Shown: positions 1-9,577, numbered from the stretch's first letter. The stretch is 64,000 nt of DNA from Phycisphaerae bacterium (GCA_963675745.2 CAXXWX010000016.1:1-64000), one strand, 5' to 3'. Translations and numbers: made by a program. Notes: generated by a model not told the origin, from the letters alone.

Positions 1-316
1 AGGGGCGCGGGCGCATGGCCACGGGTGGAGCGCAGCGCAACCCGTGGGAAAGAATGCCCCCCCACCCAACCGCCCGCGAAGGGCGCGGGCGCATGGCCAC
101 GGGTGGAGCGCAGCGCAACCCGTGGAGAGAATGCCTACCCCGCCCAACCGCCCCGAAGGGGCGCCGGCGCATGGCCACGGGTGGAGCGCAGCGCAACCCG
201 TGGAAAGAATGCCTACCCACCCAACCGCCCCGCAGGGGCGCCGGCGCATGGCCACGGGTGGAGCGCAGCGCAACCCGTGGAAAGAATGCCTACCCACCCA
301 ACCGCCCCGAAGGGGC
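1..316. repeat. Tandem array of four ~78-bp palindromic units (REP/IS200-end-like), possibly truncated by the window edge
   Basis: Core CCACGGGT-GGAGCGCAGCGCA-ACCCGTGG hairpin starts at 19, 97, 175 and 252 (periods 78, 78, 77). Each unit is followed by a CGCCCCGAAGGGGCG-type hairpin. A fifth near-copy is at 31436-31465. Confidence 0.9.
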
Positions 317-757: not shown

Positions 758-2080
758 TCACCCCCCGGCGGCGCGATAGCGGGCGAGCAACTCGCGACTG
801 ATCTTCACATGTGGATGACCTTCGTCAAAGTGCTTGAGCCAGGCGGACAGCGCCTTCTCTTCCAAGCCCACCGCCTCGGCCGGCTTGCCCTCGTCAAACG
901 CGATGCCCGCCAGGTTGTGGTAGCGGATCGCCAAATTCGGGTGGTCGGCACCGAAGTGCTTCTCGTCGATCTCGATGGCGCGCTCCATCAGCCGCCGCGC
1001 CTCGGGCAGCTCGCCAAGCCCCTTGCGGATCATCGCCAGGTTGGAGTAGCTGATCGCCAGTGTCGGATGGTCGGCGTCGAAGTGCTTCTCGGCGATCTCG
1101 ATGGCCCGCTCCATCAGCCGCTGCGCCTCGGGAAGCTCGCCGAGACCTTGAAGGATCGTCGCCAGGTTGGAGTAGCTCCTTGCCAGCGTCGGATGGTCGG
1201 CACCGAAGTGCTTCTCCTCAATTTCGATGGCCTGCGCCATCAATCGCCGCGCCTCCGGCAGCTCGCCGAGGTTGTTGAGGATCATCGCCAGGTTCGAGTA
1301 GCTCGTTGCCAGCGTCGGATGGTCGGCGCCAAAGTGCTCCTCATCGATCTCGATGGCCCGCTCCATCAGCCGTCGCGCCTCGGGCAACTCGCCAAGGTCT
1401 TTTAGGATAGCCGCCAGGTTGGAGTAGCTGGTCGCCAGCGTCGGATGGTCGACGCCGAAATGCTTCTCGCCGATCTCGATGGCCCGCTCGATGCACCGCC
1501 GCGACTCGGTCAGTTCGCCGAGGTTCTTCAGGATCATCGCCAGGTTGGAGTGGCGGATTGCCAGCGCTGGATGGTCGGCATCGAAGTGCTTCTTGTCGAT
1601 CTCGATGGCCCGCTCCATCAGCCGCCGCGCTTCGGGCAACTCGCTGACGTCTATAAGAATCGTCGCCAGGTTGGAGTAGTGGGTCGCCAGCGTCGGATGG
1701 TCCTCGTCGAAGTGCTTCTCGTCGATCTCGATGGCCCGCTCCATCAGCCGTCGCGCCCCGAGTAACTCGCCGAGGTCTTGGAGGATCAGCGCCAAGTCGC
1801 TCGATGCGCCCGCGATTACCGCAGGAGGCGCGTCGTTCCATCGCTCCAGCAGGCTAACGCGCGCCTCCGCGGCAATTCGCGCTGCGTGGAAATCCCCCTG
1901 ATCTCTCGCCGCCATCACGAAATCGCCGAGGTCGTCAGAGAGGCTCTGAATATCGGCGTGTTCACGTTTGGCCTCAGTTAACAGAGTCTCAAGGCTCCGC
2001 CTTACGTGCTGCGCCCGTCTCAGAACGAGCGCGGGCGGGGTCCGATTGATGCTGTGCCGTGCAGGGTCTTCGTTACTCAT
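758..2080 (-). CDS. Tetratricopeptide-repeat protein with eight 42-aa TPR_10/TPR_12-like repeats; probable NLR sensor module
   Basis: Repeats follow LAxxYSNLAxILxxLGELPEARRLMERAIEIxEKHFxADHPT. The likely ATG at 2080 (MSNEDP) overlaps the stop of the upstream NB-ARC ORF by 8 nt. Confidence 0.85.
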   Translation of the reverse strand: MSNEDPARHSINRTPPALVLRRAQHVRRSLETLLTEAKREHADIQSLSDDLGDFVMAARDQGDFHAARIAAEARVSLLERWNDAPPAVIAGASSDLALILQDLGELLGARRLMERAIEIDEKHFDEDHPTLATHYSNLATILIDVSELPEARRLMERAIEIDKKHFDADHPALAIRHSNLAMILKNLGELTESRRCIERAIEIGEKHFGVDHPTLATSYSNLAAILKDLGELPEARRLMERAIEIDEEHFGADHPTLATSYSNLAMILNNLGELPEARRLMAQAIEIEEKHFGADHPTLARSYSNLATILQGLGELPEAQRLMERAIEIAEKHFDADHPTLAISYSNLAMIRKGLGELPEARRLMERAIEIDEKHFGADHPNLAIRYHNLAGIAFDEGKPAEAVGLEEKALSAWLKHFDEGHPHVKISRELLARYRAAGG

Positions 2081-3554
2081 CCGTGGCACGCGCCTTTCCA
2101 ACTGCTTGGGCAACATAGATCGCTTGCGTCTGGATCGCCACTGGAGGGGTTGGAAGCAGGGATATCGTCCCGCGCACGACACGGCGGGTTGCCGCCGATG
2201 CGAGCGTGTTGCCCTCTCTACGGAATTGTTCGCCAATCGCGTGGAGTGCAAGCACCCCGTACCATCCCATCGCGACCATCGACGCCGGTTTCCATTGCTC
2301 GACTAGGTCATACAGCCATTCCTCGATCGCGGCCCGCAGAGCTGTCCGATCGTCTTGCCGTGTCTGCTGCTGTAGGATTCCAGCCGCGCGTCGGCGGTGC
2401 AGCCGATGCACCGAAAGCAGCACATCATCCTTCGCCGCGGTCGTGAGCAAGTCGAGCTGCTGCAGATGGCCGACCACATCCGCCGGTGTCCTCGCCTTAC
2501 CCGACGGCTTACAGCCCAGATCGAGGCGGCGCTCTCCACGTTCCTGCGCTGCATCAGCCGCCAGCAGCACTTCCAGCCACGTCGGCACGATTTTGTCCGG
2601 CGGCAGCAGCGCGGCATAGTCGAGCACGCGAACCTCGGCCGCCGGCAACCGAGCCCGCAAGTCGTCCAGCACCTGCGCGGTCTTCCCGGCATAGCCGGTC
2701 TCGGCGCGGACCGCCTTGTTCTGGTCGGGTAGCTCGCTCAACGGCGCCTCGCAAAGATGTTCGGCATAGGCGCGCCAGTCGTCATCCTCATCGAGCTTCA
2801 TCAACGCTCCGACGGCAGCAACGGCGGCGGCCAGATGTTCAACCTCGCACAATATCGTCTCGATCGCCTCACGGTGGGCGCCATCCGTCGCCGATGGGCG
2901 GAACCGCGCCAACAGCGCGAACGCCTCTTCTTCGGTCAGCTTGCCGACCGTTACCTCACGCGTTCCAGGCAAATGCTCGGCCCGCGTCGTGACCAAGACG
3001 TGACAGGGCGGGCGAGGCAGGAAATCCTGAAATGACTTGTCGCTCCACTGCTCGGCATCCCGGACGTTGTCGAGAATGAGCAGGCAGCGCGGCTCTCGCG
3101 ACAGCATGGCCCGAGCATATCGCGCCCGATCTTCGTCGCTCACTTTGACGTCTGCTTTGTCCGTAAGCACGAGCGCGGCCAAAGCCGTTGCGAGCGATCC
3201 CGTTTCGCACTCTACTGCGAAACACCCGCCTGGATATCGGTTGCTGTATTCGTGCGCATAGGCGTAGGCCAGCACGGTCTTGCCGTGCCCGCCGTCGCCG
3301 CTGGCCACGATCTGCCCGGTAACCGTCGCCCGTTCGCCCTCGTCAAGCTGATCGGCCAGTGTTTTCATTACGGCTTTGCGCCGGACGTAATGTTCCAACA
3401 GGCGTGGCACACCGCTGTGGAGCTGCACAGAGTCCGGCACGGTGAAGATGTTCTTATTGTTGATCGTGCCCACATTCTTGACGACGGACGTAGCGGAGCC
3501 CTTTCCGACGGCGGGCATCGGCGTATCTTGATTAGTGGGCTGCTCGGGCATCAT
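2073..3554 (-). CDS. NB-ARC/STAND NTPase with a short N-terminal amyloid-like motif and no C-terminal repeats
   Basis: Walker A GDGGHGKT, Walker B LLILDN, VLVTTR, degenerate GLPL (EHLAAAV) and MHD-equivalent VHRL. N-terminus contains SVVKNVGTINNKNIF. Confidence 0.85.
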   Translation of the reverse strand: MMPEQPTNQDTPMPAVGKGSATSVVKNVGTINNKNIFTVPDSVQLHSGVPRLLEHYVRRKAVMKTLADQLDEGERATVTGQIVASGDGGHGKTVLAYAYAHEYSNRYPGGCFAVECETGSLATALAALVLTDKADVKVSDEDRARYARAMLSREPRCLLILDNVRDAEQWSDKSFQDFLPRPPCHVLVTTRAEHLPGTREVTVGKLTEEEAFALLARFRPSATDGAHREAIETILCEVEHLAAAVAAVGALMKLDEDDDWRAYAEHLCEAPLSELPDQNKAVRAETGYAGKTAQVLDDLRARLPAAEVRVLDYAALLPPDKIVPTWLEVLLAADAAQERGERRLDLGCKPSGKARTPADVVGHLQQLDLLTTAAKDDVLLSVHRLHRRRAAGILQQQTRQDDRTALRAAIEEWLYDLVEQWKPASMVAMGWYGVLALHAIGEQFRREGNTLASAATRRVVRGTISLLPTPPVAIQTQAIYVAQAVGKARATDE

Positions 3555-3560
3555 TGCTGC

Positions 3561-3899
3561 TTAATTGAATGTGTTGGTATTACTGATGGTGCCGGTGTTT
3601 GTTCCGACCACAGTGACCGACCCTTTCTCCACCGAGAGCGAGCCGACCAGCGTCGACGGTGTGCCCGTTTGTTGGGCCTTTAGAATCTCGACCACTTGGC
3701 CGGCCAATGCCTGGTCGGCTTCGAGGGCTCGCGCAATGTCGAGCGACAAGTTGGCATCGGCCGGCACCTTCGACCAGCCCAATAGCGACCTGATCCGCTC
3801 CCAGGCACTCTTCCCCACCTCCGAGGCCACGCCTTTTGTGACCTCCAGGGCCAAAACGGTGGCGCCGCTGGTCAGTGTTGCCAGTGTCACGGGATCCAT
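3561..3899 (-). CDS. Small Bell/HeLL-like helical protein (112 aa) with a C-terminal amyloid-like motif
   Basis: ATG at 3899 preceded by an AGGGAG SD. N-terminus MDPVTLATLTSGATVLALEVTKGVASEVGKSAWERIRSLL; C-terminus GSVTVVGTNTGTISNTNTFN. Its stop lies 6 bp before the NB-ARC start. Confidence 0.75.
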   Translation of the reverse strand: MDPVTLATLTSGATVLALEVTKGVASEVGKSAWERIRSLLGWSKVPADANLSLDIARALEADQALAGQVVEILKAQQTGTPSTLVGSLSVEKGSVTVVGTNTGTISNTNTFN

Positions 3900-4086
3900 G
3901 GCGATCTCCCTATGAGCCGCGTCTGCTAAAGACGCTGCGTGAGAGTCCACGGGACGCTGATTCCAGTCTACGATTATCCGCCCCGTGCATCCGAACGGGT
4001 GACCGGGGACCGCCCTGTCCGCGCACGCCGCGAGCGGATCGAGGTGGCGTCCCTGGACACGAAGATATTCTACTACTCAGGCCGCG

Positions 4087-4285
4087 ACGCGGCCAGCCAG
4101 CAGGTGCGGCGAGCCGCTCGTGCGAGAATCCTTTCTCGCACGTCCAGTTCCGGGAATCTTTTCCCGCGACATGAGGGTGCAGGATCGGAATCCTGCGTGT
4201 GTCGGTGCGAGATGGGAATCTCGCACCAGCAAGCACCAGCCGGCAGGTGCCGCAACGCGGCCAGCCAGCAGGTGCGGCGAGCCGC
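4087..4285. repeat. 31-bp direct repeat pair ACGCGGCCAGCCAGCAGGTGCGGCGAGCCGC
   Basis: Identical copies at 4087-4117 and 4255-4285, intergenic. Confidence 0.8.
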
Positions 4286-4297
4286 ATCTACCGCCGC

Positions 4298-4329
4298 TGC
4301 CTCGTTGCCTAGTTGCCTGGTTGCCTCGT
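4298..4329. repeat. Octamer tandem repeat (TGCCTNGT)x4
   Basis: tgcctcgt-tgcctagt-tgcctggt-tgcctcgt. A reverse-complement array (AGGCAACN)x4 is at 55030-55061. Confidence 0.75.
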
Positions 4330-4372
4330 TCCCTTGCGGCCTTGCGGCCTCGTGCCCTCGTCACCCCGCCTA

Positions 4373-7300
4373 TCACGTCCCGACCAGCGCCTGCATCAGG
4401 GCGTAGTCCTGCATGTCTACGTCGCCGTCCCCGTCGATGTCCACTGGTTCGCAGCCGGCGGCCGGACCGGATGCCGTCGGCCCGGTGATACAGGCGGTGA
4501 ACAGGCTCAGATCATCCGCATCGACGTCGCCGTCACCGTCCAGATCGCCATAGCGCTCCAGCGCTGCCGGGTTGCTGGCCACGGTGCCGCAGCGGCTACT
4601 GACGTCCACGTCGTAATACCCCAGGTCGCTGACGGCGACCGGGTTGACGGTCAGCGCAGCCGTCGTCGCGCCCGAGATATTACCGCCGTCGCTGAGCGGG
4701 CTGTTGTCGTGGTACCACTGATAGCTGAGCGTGTCGGTCGAAGCGGCGGTCACGGTAAACGTCGCCGAGCCGGTCAGATTGACGACCTGTAACGCCGGAT
4801 GCTGCGTGATCAGCGGCCAGGCCGACGCCGACCAGCGCGCGAGGTACATAGCCGGATCGCCGTCGGCGAACGTGAAATCGCCGCCGGCGTACAAGGCCTG
4901 ACCCGTCCCGTCATCATACGCGTGCAAAACGCGTACGGCGGTGATCGGTGAACCGCCGCTCATGCCGCTGCCGACCGCGCTCCAGGATGTCCCGTTCCAC
5001 TGCGCGACGTTGTCGGCCGCGCTGCCGCCGGCGGTTGAGAAGGAGCCGCCGGCGTAAAGGGCCGAACCGGCCCAGCCATCAAACACGCCGAGCGCCACGA
5101 CAAACGGGCTGGTACCGCCGATACCACTGCCCAACGCCGACCAGGCGCTGCCGTTCCAATTCGCGACATAGTTACACGCCGTGCCGCCCGCCGTGGTGAA
5201 TTGCCCGCCGGCAAACAACGCCGGTCCGGTCCCGTCGTCCCACACGGCCAGCGAATTGACGGTGTTGTTCATGCCCGTGCCGACCGCCGACCACGCGGTC
5301 CCATTCCATCTGGCGATGTAATTGCAGCTTGACCCGCCGGCGGTTGTGAAGTTGCCGCCGACATACAAGGCCGGGCCGCTGCCGTCATCAAAAACCGCCA
5401 GGCAAGTGGCGTAGCCGTTAAGGCCGCTGCCCAGCGCTGACCAGATCGTGCCGTTCCAGGCGGCGACGTGCGGCGAGCTGATTCCACCAGCGTTTGCGAA
5501 CTGGCCGGCAACATAAAGGTCGTCACCGGCGCCGTCATCGAATACCGCCAGGTCATACACGTACGTGTAAGGCACACCGCCGGTCAATCCGGTGCCAAGC
5601 GGCGCCCACGCGCTCCCGTTCCACATGGCGATACGTTCAGCGCTGCTGCCGTCGGCGTGATCGAAATCACCGCCGGCGTAAAGATCATCACCACCGCCGT
5701 CATCAAAGACGCACAGCGCACTCACCCGGCTGCCCCCATACGGATCGCCGCCGCTCATTCCCGTGCCCAGCGCCGACCACGCCGCCCCGTCCCACTTGGC
5801 CGCGTTGCCGGCGGTGTTTCCACCGATGGTGGTGAACGCGCCCCCGGCATACAGCGCATGCCCGCCGCCATCGTTGTAATCGACCAGGTCATATACGCCG
5901 GCGTCAGTCACGGGGCCAAGTTGCGGCCAGGAGCGGCCGTTCCACACCGAGATGTAGTTGGCGGTCACGCCGCCGGCGGAGGTGAAATCGCCGGCCACAT
6001 AGAGCATAGCGCCTCCCCCACCACCGTCGTCGTATTCAGCCATGGCCCAGACACCCGGGTATGTCCAGCCGCCACCGATTCCGCTGCCCAGCGCGGACCA
6101 GCTTCCGCCTTGCCACCTGGCGACCTCGTTAGCGGCCACACCGCCGGCGCTGCTGAAATGCCCGCCGACGTACAGTGCCTCGCCCAGCCCCTCATCGTGA
6201 GTACAGAGCGAATAGACCTGGCTGGAAGTGCCCGAGCCAAGCGGCGCCCAACTGGTACCGTCCCAGGCGGCGACAAAGTTGGCGCTATTGGAGTCGGCCG
6301 TCGTGAAATACCCGCCGGCATACAGCTTCTGACCATAGCCGTCATCGTAAACGGTGAGCGCGTTGACCACGCTGTTCATCCCACTGCCAAGCGGAGCCCA
6401 CCAGATGCCGTCCCACTCGGCGATGTAGTTCTTGCCCGATCCCCCCGCCCAGGTGAACCCCCCGCCGGCGTAGAGGTGCGCTCCGCCGCCGTCGTTATAG
6501 ACCGCCAGCGAGTTGACCACGCTGTTGAAACCGGCGCCGACGGCGGCCCAGGTCGAGCCGTTCCAACTGGCGATGAAGCTGGTGCTGGTGCCGCCGGCGT
6601 AGGTGAAATCGCCGCCGGCGTAGAGCTTGTCACCACTGCCGTCGTTCCAGACCGCCAGCGCATCGACGTATGTGTAACTCACACCGCCGCTCATCCCCGT
6701 GCCCAACTGCGACCACGTGGAGCCGTTCCACTTGGCGATGTAGTTGGCGGGATTGCCGCCCGCGGTAGTGAACCATCCGCCGGCGTACAGGGCCGCGCCC
6801 GAACCATCATCGTAGACGGCCAGCGTGTTAACCTGGTTGTTCAGCCCGCTGCCCAACGCCGTCCACGTCGTGCCGTCCCACTTCGCAATGTAGTTGGCGG
6901 TCACCCCGTCCACGGCGCCGAACAGCCCGCCGACATAAAGGGCCGGCCCGCCACCGTCGTCCCAGACCACGGCCGCGTGAATCCGACCGGTCGCGCCTGG
7001 CGGCCCAAATGCGCCCGCCCAGGCGCCGTCACATTCGGTGTCGGGAACCGTAAGCGTGGCCATGTCGCTGCTGGTGGGTCCACACGGATTCGTGACCACA
7101 ACGTCATAGTCGCCCGCGTCGCTCAGTCCGACCGGGCTGATGGTCAGCATCGGGGCCGTGCTGCCGGTGATGTTGCCCACGTCGCTGAGCGGCGTGCCAC
7201 CCTTGTACCATTGGTACGTCAGCGGAGCGACACCACTGGCGCTCACTGTGAAGACCGCAGCGTATCCGACCGGCACGGTCTGCGATTGCGGCTGTTGCGT

Positions 7301-9577
7301 AATGACCGGCGCGGTTTCAGCCGACCACTCGGCGAAATGGCGCGAGCTGTAACCACCGGCTGTTGTGAACAGGCCGCCGGCGTACAGAATCGGCCCGTTG
7401 CCTACGTCGAACGTCAGCAGCGCGCGCACATCGTCATCCATGCCGCTGTCCAGCGGCGACCAGGATGAGCCGTTCCAGCGCGCGATGCGGCTGGCGCTAA
7501 CTCCGCTCGCCGCCGTGAAACCACCCCCCGCGATCAGTGCCGGGCCGCTACCTTCGTTGAGCGTGGCCAGCGCGCGCACGGCGGGGTCAAAACCAGTGGT
7601 CATGCCGCTGCCAAGGGCCGACCAGTTCGCGCCGTCCCACTTGGCGATGCGATTGGCACTCACACCACCGGCCGCCGTAAACGAACCGCCGGCGTAAAGT
7701 GCATCACCGGCGCCGTCATCATGTACGTGCAGACAGATGGGCGTGTTGTTGAGCCCGCCGCCAACGGCTGACCAGCCGGCACCATCCCAACGCGCGATCT
7801 TGCTGGCGGGCACACCGCCCGCCACGGTGAATCCACCACCGGCGTAGAGGTCGTCTCCCCCGCCGTCGTCATAGACGACTAGTGAAGCGACGGGGCTGTT
7901 CATACCGCTGGAGACGCCCGACCACGACGTGCCATCCCACTTGGCGATGTTGTCGGCCATGACGCCGCCGGCGGAATCAAACGCACCGCCGACGTACAGC
8001 TCGTCTCCGCCGCCGTCATCATAGACCGCCAGCGCATAGACCAGCGGATCAATGGCGCCGATCCCGCTGCCCAGCGCCGACCACGAGGAGCCGTTCCATT
8101 TGGCGACACACGAAGCTGAGCTGCCGCCCGCGTTCTGGAAGTGGCCGCCGGCGTACAGCGCGGCCCCCGTGCCGTCATCGTAAACCGCCAGCGCGTATAC
8201 GTAGTCGTCAACGCCTGACCCGAGCGGCGACCACGCATCACCGTCCCACTTTGCGACACGCCAGGCTATCATCCCGCTGACGCCCGTGAACTCGCCGGCC
8301 GCGTAGACGGCCGGACCGGTGCCGTCGTCGAATGTAACCAGGGCGCGAATGTTGTTGTTGACGCCGCTGCCGAGCGCCGACCACCCACTGCCATCCCAGC
8401 GCGCCATGTACGGACTGTAGGCGGAGTCGGCGTACGTGAACGTGCCACCCGCGTAGAGCGCGTCGCCGTCGCCCACATCGAAAACCCCCAGCGCATACAC
8501 ACCGTTATCAACGCCGTTGCCGGTCGGCCACCAATTCGCACCATCCCAGAATGCAACGTTGGCCGCGCCGACGCCGCCCGCGGTTGTGAATGTGCCGCCT
8601 ATGTGGAGTGCATCGCCGAACCCATCGTCAAAGACCGCGAGAGTCTCGACGGTCCCATCCGTACCGGTTCCAACCGCAGACCACGCCAACCCGCTCCACT
8701 TCGCCACATGCGGACAACTGGTGCCGCCGGCGTAGGTGAAGGTGCCGCCGGCATAAAGCGCGTCGCCGGACCCGTCGTTAAACACGGCGAACTCGGCGAC
8801 TGTGCTGTTCGTGCCGCTACCCAGCGCCGACCAGCTCGCCCCGTTCCACCGGGCCGTGTTGTTGACCGTGACGCCACCGGCGGTCGAGAACAGCCCGCCG
8901 GCGTAAAGATCATTGCCGCCCCCGTCGTTGAAGACTTCCAGGGCAAGCACCATTCCCGTCGTGCCGCTGCTCATGGCAGACCAGCTTGATCCATTCCAGC
9001 GGGCCACGCGATTGACGGTGAGTCCGCCGGCGGTGGTGAACAGCCCGCCGGCATAGAGGTCGTCACCGCCGCCGTCATTGAAAACCGCCAGCGAGTAGAC
9101 CGGGCTGTTCATTCCCGTGCCCAGCGCCGACCAGGCGGAACCGTTCCATTTGGCGATACGGTTGACAGTCACGCCGCCCGCCGTCGTGAACAGTCCGCCG
9201 ACATACAGCGCGTTGCCGCCGCCATCATTGAACACCGCCAGTGCAAAGCCGGGGTCGTTCAACCCGCTGCCGAGCGCCGACCACGTCGAGCCATCCCACT
9301 TGGCGATGCAGTTAACATATGTGCCGCCGGCGAGAGTGAACTGGCCGGTGACGTACAGGGCGTCGCCGCCGCCGTCGTTGTAGATCACGTAATCGTTGAT
9401 CCGGCCGTTGAGGTTTGGCGGGTTGGCGAACCCGGTGGCCCATTCATAGCTGCCGCAGTCGGCCAGCGCGCGCGGCCCGCTTGCGGCGAGAGCTAACAGC
9501 ACCATGAGCCCGGCGGCGGCGCCGAAATGAACCGAGGGACTACGCGTCGAACGGGTTTCGTCTTTGCGTGCGTTCAC
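4373..9577 (-). CDS. Large secreted/surface protein: beta-propeller repeats, two Ig-like domains and a C-terminal dockerin-like EF-hand pair
   Basis: Signal peptide; 28 repeats like LAVYDDGGGxxLYAGGxFTxAGGxxAxxIAKWDG; two PxITQxP...YQW...G.YDV Ig domains; GDLDGDGDVDADD / DIDGDGDVDMQD tail. GGGAGG SD precedes GTG 9577. Confidence 0.85.
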   Translation of the reverse strand: MNARKDETRSTRSPSVHFGAAAGLMVLLALAASGPRALADCGSYEWATGFANPPNLNGRINDYVIYNDGGGDALYVTGQFTLAGGTYVNCIAKWDGSTWSALGSGLNDPGFALAVFNDGGGNALYVGGLFTTAGGVTVNRIAKWNGSAWSALGTGMNSPVYSLAVFNDGGGDDLYAGGLFTTAGGLTVNRVARWNGSSWSAMSSGTTGMVLALEVFNDGGGNDLYAGGLFSTAGGVTVNNTARWNGASWSALGSGTNSTVAEFAVFNDGSGDALYAGGTFTYAGGTSCPHVAKWSGLAWSAVGTGTDGTVETLAVFDDGFGDALHIGGTFTTAGGVGAANVAFWDGANWWPTGNGVDNGVYALGVFDVGDGDALYAGGTFTYADSAYSPYMARWDGSGWSALGSGVNNNIRALVTFDDGTGPAVYAAGEFTGVSGMIAWRVAKWDGDAWSPLGSGVDDYVYALAVYDDGTGAALYAGGHFQNAGGSSASCVAKWNGSSWSALGSGIGAIDPLVYALAVYDDGGGDELYVGGAFDSAGGVMADNIAKWDGTSWSGVSSGMNSPVASLVVYDDGGGDDLYAGGGFTVAGGVPASKIARWDGAGWSAVGGGLNNTPICLHVHDDGAGDALYAGGSFTAAGGVSANRIAKWDGANWSALGSGMTTGFDPAVRALATLNEGSGPALIAGGGFTAASGVSASRIARWNGSSWSPLDSGMDDDVRALLTFDVGNGPILYAGGLFTTAGGYSSRHFAEWSAETAPVITQQPQSQTVPVGYAAVFTVSASGVAPLTYQWYKGGTPLSDVGNITGSTAPMLTISPVGLSDAGDYDVVVTNPCGPTSSDMATLTVPDTECDGAWAGAFGPPGATGRIHAAVVWDDGGGPALYVGGLFGAVDGVTANYIAKWDGTTWTALGSGLNNQVNTLAVYDDGSGAALYAGGWFTTAGGNPANYIAKWNGSTWSQLGTGMSGGVSYTYVDALAVWNDGSGDKLYAGGDFTYAGGTSTSFIASWNGSTWAAVGAGFNSVVNSLAVYNDGGGAHLYAGGGFTWAGGSGKNYIAEWDGIWWAPLGSGMNSVVNALTVYDDGYGQKLYAGGYFTTADSNSANFVAAWDGTSWAPLGSGTSSQVYSLCTHDEGLGEALYVGGHFSSAGGVAANEVARWQGGSWSALGSGIGGGWTYPGVWAMAEYDDGGGGGAMLYVAGDFTSAGGVTANYISVWNGRSWPQLGPVTDAGVYDLVDYNDGGGHALYAGGAFTTIGGNTAGNAAKWDGAAWSALGTGMSGGDPYGGSRVSALCVFDDGGGDDLYAGGDFDHADGSSAERIAMWNGSAWAPLGTGLTGGVPYTYVYDLAVFDDGAGDDLYVAGQFANAGGISSPHVAAWNGTIWSALGSGLNGYATCLAVFDDGSGPALYVGGNFTTAGGSSCNYIARWNGTAWSAVGTGMNNTVNSLAVWDDGTGPALFAGGQFTTAGGTACNYVANWNGSAWSALGSGIGGTSPFVVALGVFDGWAGSALYAGGSFSTAGGSAADNVAQWNGTSWSAVGSGMSGGSPITAVRVLHAYDDGTGQALYAGGDFTFADGDPAMYLARWSASAWPLITQHPALQVVNLTGSATFTVTAASTDTLSYQWYHDNSPLSDGGNISGATTAALTVNPVAVSDLGYYDVDVSSRCGTVASNPAALERYGDLDGDGDVDADDLSLFTACITGPTASGPAAGCEPVDIDGDGDVDMQDYALMQALVGT

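Follow-up and report, generated by a model that had tools for sequence, protein, structure and literature searches.

A Putative Amyloid-Signaling Operon With a Split Receptor in a Phycisphaerae Bacterium

Introduction

Can a receptor and a small protein encoded side by side in a planctomycete be partners in amyloid signaling, matched to each other by a short motif that both carry? The question is raised by segment 758-3899 of a 64,000-nt stretch of DNA from a Phycisphaerae bacterium (GCA_963675745.2 CAXXWX010000016.1:1-64000; this whole stretch is called the window below). Three tightly packed, co-directional genes on its minus strand encode a 112-aa protein (the effector), a protein with an NB-ARC NTPase domain and a protein of tetratricopeptide repeats (TPR). 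A preliminary description had tentatively assigned the segment to the Bell/BASS type of systems (BASS, bacterial amyloid signaling sequence), in which a small effector and a NOD-like receptor (NLR; NOD, nucleotide-binding oligomerization domain) share a motif. It had also taken the host for planctomycete-like, and the host is indeed a Phycisphaerae-type planctomycete.

In the fungal HET-S/NWD2 and HELLP/PNT1 systems, an N-terminal tag of the NLR templates the C-terminal, prion-forming tag of an adjacent pore-forming helical effector. The HeLo and HeLL effector domains of these systems are about 200 aa long, the receptors have a NACHT-WD architecture, and the motifs are of the HRAM or PP kind.

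Bacterial counterparts have been described in two studies. Bell-domain proteins were found beside NLRs and the motif families BASS1-10 were defined, for the most part in Actinobacteria and Cyanobacteria (Dyrka et al., 2020, 10.1101/2020.01.06.895854). According to that work, 91.3% of the pairs are collinear, 57% of these lie at most 10 bp apart, and Bell domains occur mainly in Cyanobacteria, Actinobacteria and Chloroflexi. More recently, the 109-aa Bab protein of E. coli and its partner Agp were reported to provide amyloid-signaled abortive infection (Ibarlosa et al., 2024, 10.1101/2024.11.07.622273). As given there, Bab has a "Babybell" domain of about 80 aa with a conserved N-terminus of the MEPIS type, and the substitutions D2A and G11K abolish its activity. 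Members of the BASS class that were tested and form amyloid are BASS1, BASS3 and BASS11 (10.1101/2020.01.06.895854, 10.1101/2024.11.07.622273).

Results

Shared Tag in the Window

The C-terminus of the effector, which reads SVEKGSVTVVGTNTGTISNTNTFN up to the stop codon, and the N-terminus of the NB-ARC protein, which reads MMPEQPTNQDTPMPAVGKGSATSVVKNVGTINNKNIFTVP, contain a common tag. Effector residues 89-111, a stretch of 23 residues rich in Asn, Thr, Gly and Val, align without gaps to residues 15-37 of the NB-ARC protein, with 12 of the 23 positions identical and a local score of 59. The ungapped agreement at N, G, T, I, N, N and F noted in the preliminary description is thus contained in a longer match than was claimed there. 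Shuffled effector tails scored 24.3 on average and 44 at most, so that none of 2000 reached 59. An 18-residue piece of the effector tail was also scanned, ungapped, along the whole 5.2-Mb genome in six frames (all 10,432,142 positions), and the NLR segment, lying 41 codons downstream in the adjacent gene, tied for best non-self match (score 41). A second search of the same genome with the tail placed this segment second after the tail itself. The match between the two tags is therefore real and not a product of chance, being a joint best non-self match in the genome and out of reach of all 2000 shuffles. Eight tag positions (G93, V98, N101, G103, I105, N107, N109 and F111) are invariant across nine effectors carrying this class of tag, referred to here as type 1.

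Co-variation Across Homologous Loci

Close homologues of the effector, 104-126 aa long, combine the same helical part with at least two distinct tails, ..GSVTVVGTNTGTISNTNTFN and ..INAEKVVVAEKIDTVNM. Nine loci were compared: the window, L003, L004 (= L016), L005, L009, L017, L018, L019 and L020, of which L005 is a metagenome contig and the other seven outside the window come from planctomycete genomes. At each of them the last 32 effector residues were aligned to the N-terminal extension of the neighboring NB-ARC protein, with 2000 shuffles as control. Such homologous pairs had been named beforehand as a test of the pairing, and it came out in favor: cognate similarity was found at seven of the nine loci, strong at five and moderate at two, with tag classes swapping jointly. 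The strong scores were 59 in the window, 60 in L005, 55 in L017, 56 in L019 and 69 in L020 (0/2000 shuffles each), and the moderate ones 35 in L009 and 30 in L018 (24/2000 each).

Two comparisons are particularly telling. Between the window and its closest relative, L005, the effector heads are 59% and the NB-ARC parts 73% identical, and yet both genes differ in tag class (cross scores 25 and 22). Between the window and L020, the most remote of the relatives, identity falls to 39% in the effector head and 38% in NB-ARC, whereas both genes carry the same tag class (cross scores 60 and 57), the L020 NLR also bearing a type-1 tag. Tag class thus tracks the partner and not the phylogeny of the globular parts, and to judge from these sequences the motif class changes on effector and NLR together. 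Both classes also stand at the N-termini of receptor homologues retrieved without their genomic context, type 1 in P0163 (ISVERGSVTSVGVNKGTIKNTITF) and P0165 and type 2 in P0164 and P0166.

Several of these loci have features of their own. In L009 (G136:C45, 6345-8458) the gene order is reversed, the receptor lying upstream and the effector downstream with overlapping ends, and a matched type-2 tag is kept. L018 (G684:C16) and L019 (G684:C18) are paralogous effector/NLR pairs of one genome, and their tags, ..KVFVVGTNHGGINA and ..NVNIIQNNYGGIHQS, are related; an in-frame stop after the P-loop breaks the L019 receptor. In L003 (6870-9611) and L004 (6412-8892) an effector with a type-2 tail stands beside an NLR of HTH/HNH-like start. 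L004 has a weak internal IAKKGVVVGGDATVSIY stretch ahead of its NB-ARC domain, and L003 a 127-aa open reading frame (ORF) between the effector and NLR genes.

A Receptor Divided Between Two Proteins

The NB-ARC domain occupies residues 61-273 of a 493-aa protein (PF00931, E 1.5e-12, 47.8 bits against a cut-off of 23.5), in which Pfam models detect no enzymatic or other N-terminal domain. ORF and Pfam analysis agree with the preliminary description in that the 112-aa gene runs from 3899 to 3561, that the NB-ARC gene begins 6 bp further on, and that no N-terminal effector domain precedes NB-ARC. The description of 758-3899 as a gene pair has to be amended: the NB-ARC ORF stops at 2073, the TPR protein is separate, and there are three genes. 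In PADLOC, the TPR protein has only generic TPR matches and weak AbiEii ones.

In L005, L020 and others the NLR is a single chain. The 792-aa NLR of L005 maps to two frames of the window, residues 14-406 to the NB-ARC ORF (66% identity) and residues 451-790 to the TPR ORF. The last 90 residues of the 493-aa protein have no counterpart in L005. They are conserved in P0169, an NB-ARC-only protein of 476 aa with 56% identity as far as residue 477 of 493, and genome G595 has this tail too, on a NOD protein of 721 aa (E 8.7e-11). The G595 locus (L031, G595:C61, 3551-6787) likewise encodes a split NLR, its 356-aa TPR gene starting directly after the NOD stop. The two TPR proteins align from residue 4 (G595) and residue 8 (window) with 40% identity, including about 100 residues outside the repeats. 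In addition, Logan contigs show no indel across 1728-4116 (run X1) or 1728-2276 (run X2), which is weak and non-independent support because these runs are probably the very sample of the metagenome-assembled genome. Taken together, the tails of P0169 and G595, the TPR gene of G595 and the Logan contigs point to the NB-ARC/TPR split as a conserved variant.

A frameshift artefact at the NB-ARC/TPR junction was considered and rejected in view of the tail kept in P0169 and G595 and of the Logan contigs being free of indels. The contig of run X2 reads AA for GG at 2143-2144, changing Pro to Leu in the conserved tail (..LPTPPVAIQ..), a strain variant in the same sample.

At the position of the window's tag, the G595 NOD protein carries a Gly-rich, transmembrane-like N-terminal domain of about 250 aa, and P0172 has a fused domain there as well. 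These relatives suggest that the tag and the small protein together stand in place of an effector domain.

The Effector and Its Family

A profile search of 1.84 billion representatives returned 181 proteins at E<=0.001, 126 of them at E<=1e-10, nearly all 100-125 aa long. The close homologues all start at the same M-D/E-P, the window effector beginning with MDPVTLATL... In an alignment of 132 members, M[DE]P opens 79 sequences and M[DE]P[IV][ST] 54, and an acidic residue is found at positions 2-4 in 122. The first predicted helix (residues 3-21) is hydrophobic, with a mean Kyte-Doolittle value of 1.23 in the window and a family median of 1.29, compared with -0.29 for residues 22-80. Compared with the heads of these 132 proteins, the tails (last 24 residues) contain more N (4.9x), V (2.0x), I (1.9x) and G (1.7x), hardly more Q (1.2x), far less P (0.18x) and L (0.31x) and slightly less K (0.88x); Met is the final residue in 55 of the 132.

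AlphaFold2 (AF2) places helices at residues 3-21, 27-39, 48-61 and 63-78, with block values of the predicted local distance difference test (pLDDT) of 79-91 over residues 1-70. A second model, built from the 132 sequences, has the same helices and a further short one at 80-86. The effector is accordingly modeled as a helical bundle of about 80 aa with a hydrophobic first helix, followed by a highly variable tail that is predicted to be disordered.

This family is unannotated, mostly environmental and missed by current Pfam and PADLOC models. Across the 132 members Pfam finds no shared family, the most frequent hit being ACC_epsilon (3 members, E 0.005), PADLOC-DB 2.0 holds no family matching the effector, and the clusters of ten family members are all named "hypothetical protein". 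Among 22 homologues found with alignment A2, the one that is named belongs to Candidatus Angelobacter (Acidobacteriota). Language-model neighbors are small hypothetical proteins of cyanobacteria, actinobacteria and acidobacteria, and 24 of 30 "named" neighbors are clusters containing a minority of PF20701 (HetE-N) members (26% and 18% in the two shown). The family is also rare within the host phylum. With alignment A1, 401 sampled genomes of the phylum gave two clear matches and two marginal ones inside long ORFs; with A2, a scan of the class gave matches in 6 of 401 genomes and in none of the 22 further genomes sampled from the family to which the window belongs. HetE-N itself scored above its cut-off in none of the 401 sampled genomes of the phylum. 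A scan of genome contigs with the single protein produced 583 pattern matches, none confirmed.

Operon Layout and Genomic Setting

The features of the locus are collected in Table 1. The effector ATG at 3899 is preceded by GGAG 7 nt upstream, the NB-ARC ATG at 3554 lies 6 nt past the effector TAA, and the TPR gene, in a different frame from NB-ARC, overlaps the NB-ARC stop with its ATG at 2080 (ATGAGTAA); an alternative in-frame ATG lies at 2117. Effector and NB-ARC genes share a reading frame, with TAA and two codons between them at 3552-3566, so that read-through would yield an effector-NLR fusion. In L005, unlike the window, the effector and NLR frames differ.

Table 1. Features of the operon and its upstream region (window coordinates).
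Feature	Position	Strand	Basis
Effector gene, 112 aa; small helical protein with C-terminal amyloid-type tag	3561..3899	-	ORF, homologues
Hydrophobic helix 1 (residues 3-21) after M-D-P; candidate membrane-targeting helix	3837..3893	-	AF2, hydropathy
Predicted helical globular domain, residues 1-78; four helices, possible fifth at 80-86	3666..3899	-	AF2
Effector-side tag, residues 89-111 (SVEKGSVTVVGTNTGTISNTNTF)	3567..3635	-	Alignment to NLR N-terminus
Gene for the NOD module (493 aa), with a tag at the N-terminus, an NB-ARC NTPase and a conserved C-terminal tail, lacking repeats	2073..3554	-	
Receptor-side tag, NLR residues 15-37 (AVGKGSATSVVKNVGTINNKNIF)	3444..3512	-	Tag alignment, genome scan
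P-loop GGHGKT, residues 88-93	3276..3293	-	Sequence; invariant in NLR alignment A4
Separate TPR sensor gene (putative), 440 aa	758..2080	-	TPR_10 x8, E 8.5e-81
Upstream intergenic region, presumed promoter region, with direct repeats and octamer array (4296-4358)	3900..4372	-	

Between the start of contig C16 and the operon there are 757 nt, and the operon's GC content is 0.61-0.65, like that of its surroundings. Positions 1-319 of the window hold a 77-nt tandem array of about four copies with 92-93% matches, and the same array ends contig C5 (L021, G000:C5, 14431-14667), whose last 96 nt are 100% identical to window 1-96. The common array and the 96-nt identity indicate that the assembly broke inside the array and that C5 joins C16. 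The octamer GCCTCGTT forms arrays of 50-70 nt (80-85% alike) at window 4291-4360 and at 14180-14247 of L021, which thus flank the operon and the 77-nt array on both sides; an insertion may have left these arrays, or they may be no more than simple sequence.

The presumed promoter region has two copies of a direct repeat of 26-32 nt, about 168 nt apart (4087-4286), which are the only ones in the genome, and behind each of them stands a short hairpin-like inverted repeat. In run X1 the depth of the Logan contigs rises 10-20-fold at 4048-4400, with many loose ends, which suggests that this part is multi-copy or shared in the community. No promoter-like site, and none of the sigma-70 kind, was found in the upstream region, and the two terminator-like sites are on the wrong strand and at shuffle level. 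Directly upstream, at 4373-9577 on the minus strand, lies a gene for a 1734-aa protein. It has beta-propeller repeats of the Rax2-like and DUF5122 kinds, an Ig domain and, at the C-terminus, a dockerin; it probably is a surface protein that has nothing to do with the operon.

Discussion

We conclude that segment 758-3899 is quite probably a co-directional, translationally coupled three-gene operon of the NLR/amyloid-signaling kind, in which amyloid-templated membrane killing would be the output. As judged from sequence, it appears to be a genuine effector/NLR operon of the amyloid-signaling type, supported by co-variation across loci; the lineage is new, the effector family Babybell-like, the tag BASS7-like and the split of the receptor conserved. 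In gene order and spacing, in the architecture of the NLR and in the composition of the tails, the operon agrees with published pairs and supports the Bell/BASS-type pairing proposed at the outset. The window pair is collinear with a 6-nt gap, and the same tag of about 23 aa stands at the effector C-terminus and the receptor N-terminus. Receptors of Bell/BASS systems join NB-ARC or NACHT to TPR or WD repeats; the window receptor has NB-ARC and TPR parts, but on two adjacent proteins. N, G, V and I are over-represented in the family tails and P and L scarce, which is the composition bias given for BASS motifs (10.1101/2020.01.06.895854); these are also characterized as rich in Q, poor in K and beta-prone.

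It was suggested in the preliminary description that both host and motif might be new, and of the two it is the host that seems new. The supplement of Dyrka et al. (2021, PMC8086366) lists BASS instances by set; its set C12 (17 sequences, example ..ENWQGINIKGGTNTISNPTFNFGSK) would correspond to BASS7 by set size, 17 being also the size in Table 1 of that work. By eye, the type-1 tag of the window (VE.GS.T.VGTNTGTISNTNTF) resembles the C12 instances, which share VEN..G....GTN..TISN..TF..GK with type-1 tails, most clearly in P0011 and L020; the window tag itself differs by indels and is without the W.GINIK part. On this likeness, judged by eye, the tag is best called BASS7-like and is probably not a new class. 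The commonest tail of the family (..LVG.I.AEKVVVA..I..VNM) resembles, again by eye, set C07 of the same supplement (50 sequences, the size of BASS5; example ..KLAEKIGIVVQSGGKADIQTLSM), and the type-2 tag has a similar by-eye likeness to BASS5 instances. As to the host, the window belongs to Planctomycetota (Phycisphaerae) and one named family member to Acidobacteriota, outside the main range of Bell domains. The string "Planctomyc" is absent from three core texts, those of Dyrka et al. (2020) and Ibarlosa et al. (2024) among them, the taxon tables of the 2020 study possibly listing the phylum. Full-text searches yielded no link of amyloid signaling to Planctomycetota, the two papers with both terms naming planctomycetes solely in connection with other domains.

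The effector was also said to have a Bell-like N-terminus. The M-D/E-P helix feature and the language-model neighbors speak for this, whereas hidden Markov model (HMM) and fold searches fail to show Bell membership. The MEPIS-type N-terminal feature of Bell, HeLL and Bab, M-D/E-P followed by a hydrophobic helix 1, is present in this family too. At about 80+30 aa the window effector differs from the Bell domains of about 100 aa, which were defined with HMMER from ONI86675.1, and no HMM links it to Pfam HetE-N. Bab is nearer in size (109 vs 112 aa): both proteins have a helical domain of about 80 aa whose first helix is hydrophobic, residue 2 is acidic in both, and in both cases a C-terminal tag is matched by an N-terminal tag on the adjacent partner, although the tag class differs. 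Bab is described as a compact fold of about 80 aa with four helices cupping helix 1, and the AF2 models of the window effector have four to five helices over residues 3-86 at a pLDDT of about 80. Structure prediction, which had been proposed as a check, yielded a helical bundle and no fold match above noise.

Several results weigh against assigning the operon to this class. Two of the nine loci have no cognate match (L003, score 23, 737/2000 shuffles; L004, score 21, 590/2000), and their NLRs begin with an HTH (XRE-like) or HNH-like domain in place of a tag. The summed cognate score of 408, reached by 17 of 100,000 random re-pairings, does favor the pairing, but this figure overstates independence, since the loci are relatives of each other. 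No PADLOC model matches the NB-ARC protein and no Pfam family the window effector at E<=1; a six-frame search of the genome gave no PF20701 match (HetE-N, cut-off 25 bits) at E<=10. Among chains of the Protein Data Bank (PDB), the effector found no sequence or fold match: its profile reached E 0.6 at best, Foldseek gave no match at E<=0.001 (best E 1.2, RbcX), and a wide VIA-align search of 48,161 chains gave a best Z of 5.4, within the noise of helical bundles; nothing resembling HeLo, MLKL or Bab was among the entries returned. The effector domain therefore has no relation to Bell, HeLo, MLKL or Bab that is detectable by sequence or fold, failed fold matches being no evidence of differing folds and the presence of the Bab structure among the searched chains being unconfirmed. 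Finally, the neighbors on both sides are housekeeping or surface proteins, with no recognisable defence island.

How might such an operon work? By analogy with known systems, the TPR protein would be a sensor working with the separate NB-ARC NTPase as its NOD module. Ligand-induced oligomerization of the NOD would gather the N-terminal 23-residue tags, which could then take a cross-beta fold and act as template for the corresponding tag at the C-terminus of the 112-aa protein. Once folded, the tail would free hydrophobic helix 1 from the small helical bundle, and the freed helix may attack the membrane and kill or arrest the cell, as in abortive infection or regulated cell death. Everything in this scheme past the need for the two tags to match is argued from analogy, namely the amyloid fold and templating, the association of NB-ARC and TPR proteins, membrane targeting, and the immune role with its trigger. 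It could further be that the family is a modular three-part amyloid signalosome, in which a tag cassette swapped in concert on both partners provides orthogonal channels for the death signal, even where receptors are 73% identical, and that in one branch, to which the window belongs, the repeat sensor turned into an exchangeable subunit of its own, which would be the first split NLR to signal by an amyloid tag; we put this forward tentatively, at somewhat less than an even chance.

The best surviving alternative is that the shared tag serves for non-amyloid docking, by beta-strand augmentation or co-folding, 1:1 or oligomeric, and still activates the effector. Co-variation shows only that the tags need to match, not the mode of their interaction, and AF2 gives no confident fold for the tail (pLDDT <50 at the effector tag, with short strands). 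A complex prediction of NLR 1-48 with effector 72-112, using family alignments, scored 0.01, far under its mark of 0.32, and speaks for neither reading. On the other side, composition, a length of about 23 residues, terminal positions and likeness to BASS7 and BASS5 fit a class whose tested members form amyloid, which makes docking improbable next to the amyloid-type tag that we favor.

A second alternative keeps the partnership and inverts its sense, the small protein being a regulator, a cap or antitoxin-like inhibitor, that holds the receptor tag off while the output lies elsewhere. A helical domain with no known fold match would allow this. The conserved hydrophobic helix 1 and the acidic residue at positions 2-4, in contrast, match the N-termini of the membrane-acting Bell and Bab proteins, the NOD and TPR proteins have no other output domain, and in relatives fused N-terminal domains occupy the site of the tag. 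We regard a regulator as very unlikely and an effector as the better reading. Least credible of all, and scarcely to be entertained, is that the tags resemble each other without function, as relics of a local duplication or of a fused effector-NLR gene that split in two: the single frame of effector and NB-ARC and their 6-nt gap would suit it, but L020 keeps the tag pair at 38-39% identity of the globular parts, and matched pairs of different classes persist elsewhere, in other frames and once, in L009, in reversed order.

Compared with the fungal HET-S/NWD2 and HELLP/PNT1 systems, the operon follows the same logic; those systems are eukaryotic, and no sequence relation to the window proteins was detected. 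The antiphage STAND/Avs NLRs (Avast2, bNACHT; STAND, signal transduction ATPases with numerous domains) share a STAND NTPase and a repeat sensor with the window receptor. Their effectors are fused at the N-terminus, whereas the window effector would act in trans through its tag and the sensor is a separate polypeptide; the receptor relatives P0172 and G595, as the antiphage proteins do, have fused N-terminal domains, here at the place of the tag.

The operon would extend amyloid-type death signaling to Planctomycetota, and also to a large unannotated effector family with 181 representatives. Natural matched and mismatched pairs, such as receptors that are 73% identical and carry different tag pairs, provide a ready test of whether signaling specificity is set by the tag. 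The locus also suggests that a bacterial NLR can have its NOD module on one protein and its repeat sensor on another, with the two translationally coupled, an arrangement that bears on how these receptors may assemble and exchange their sensors.

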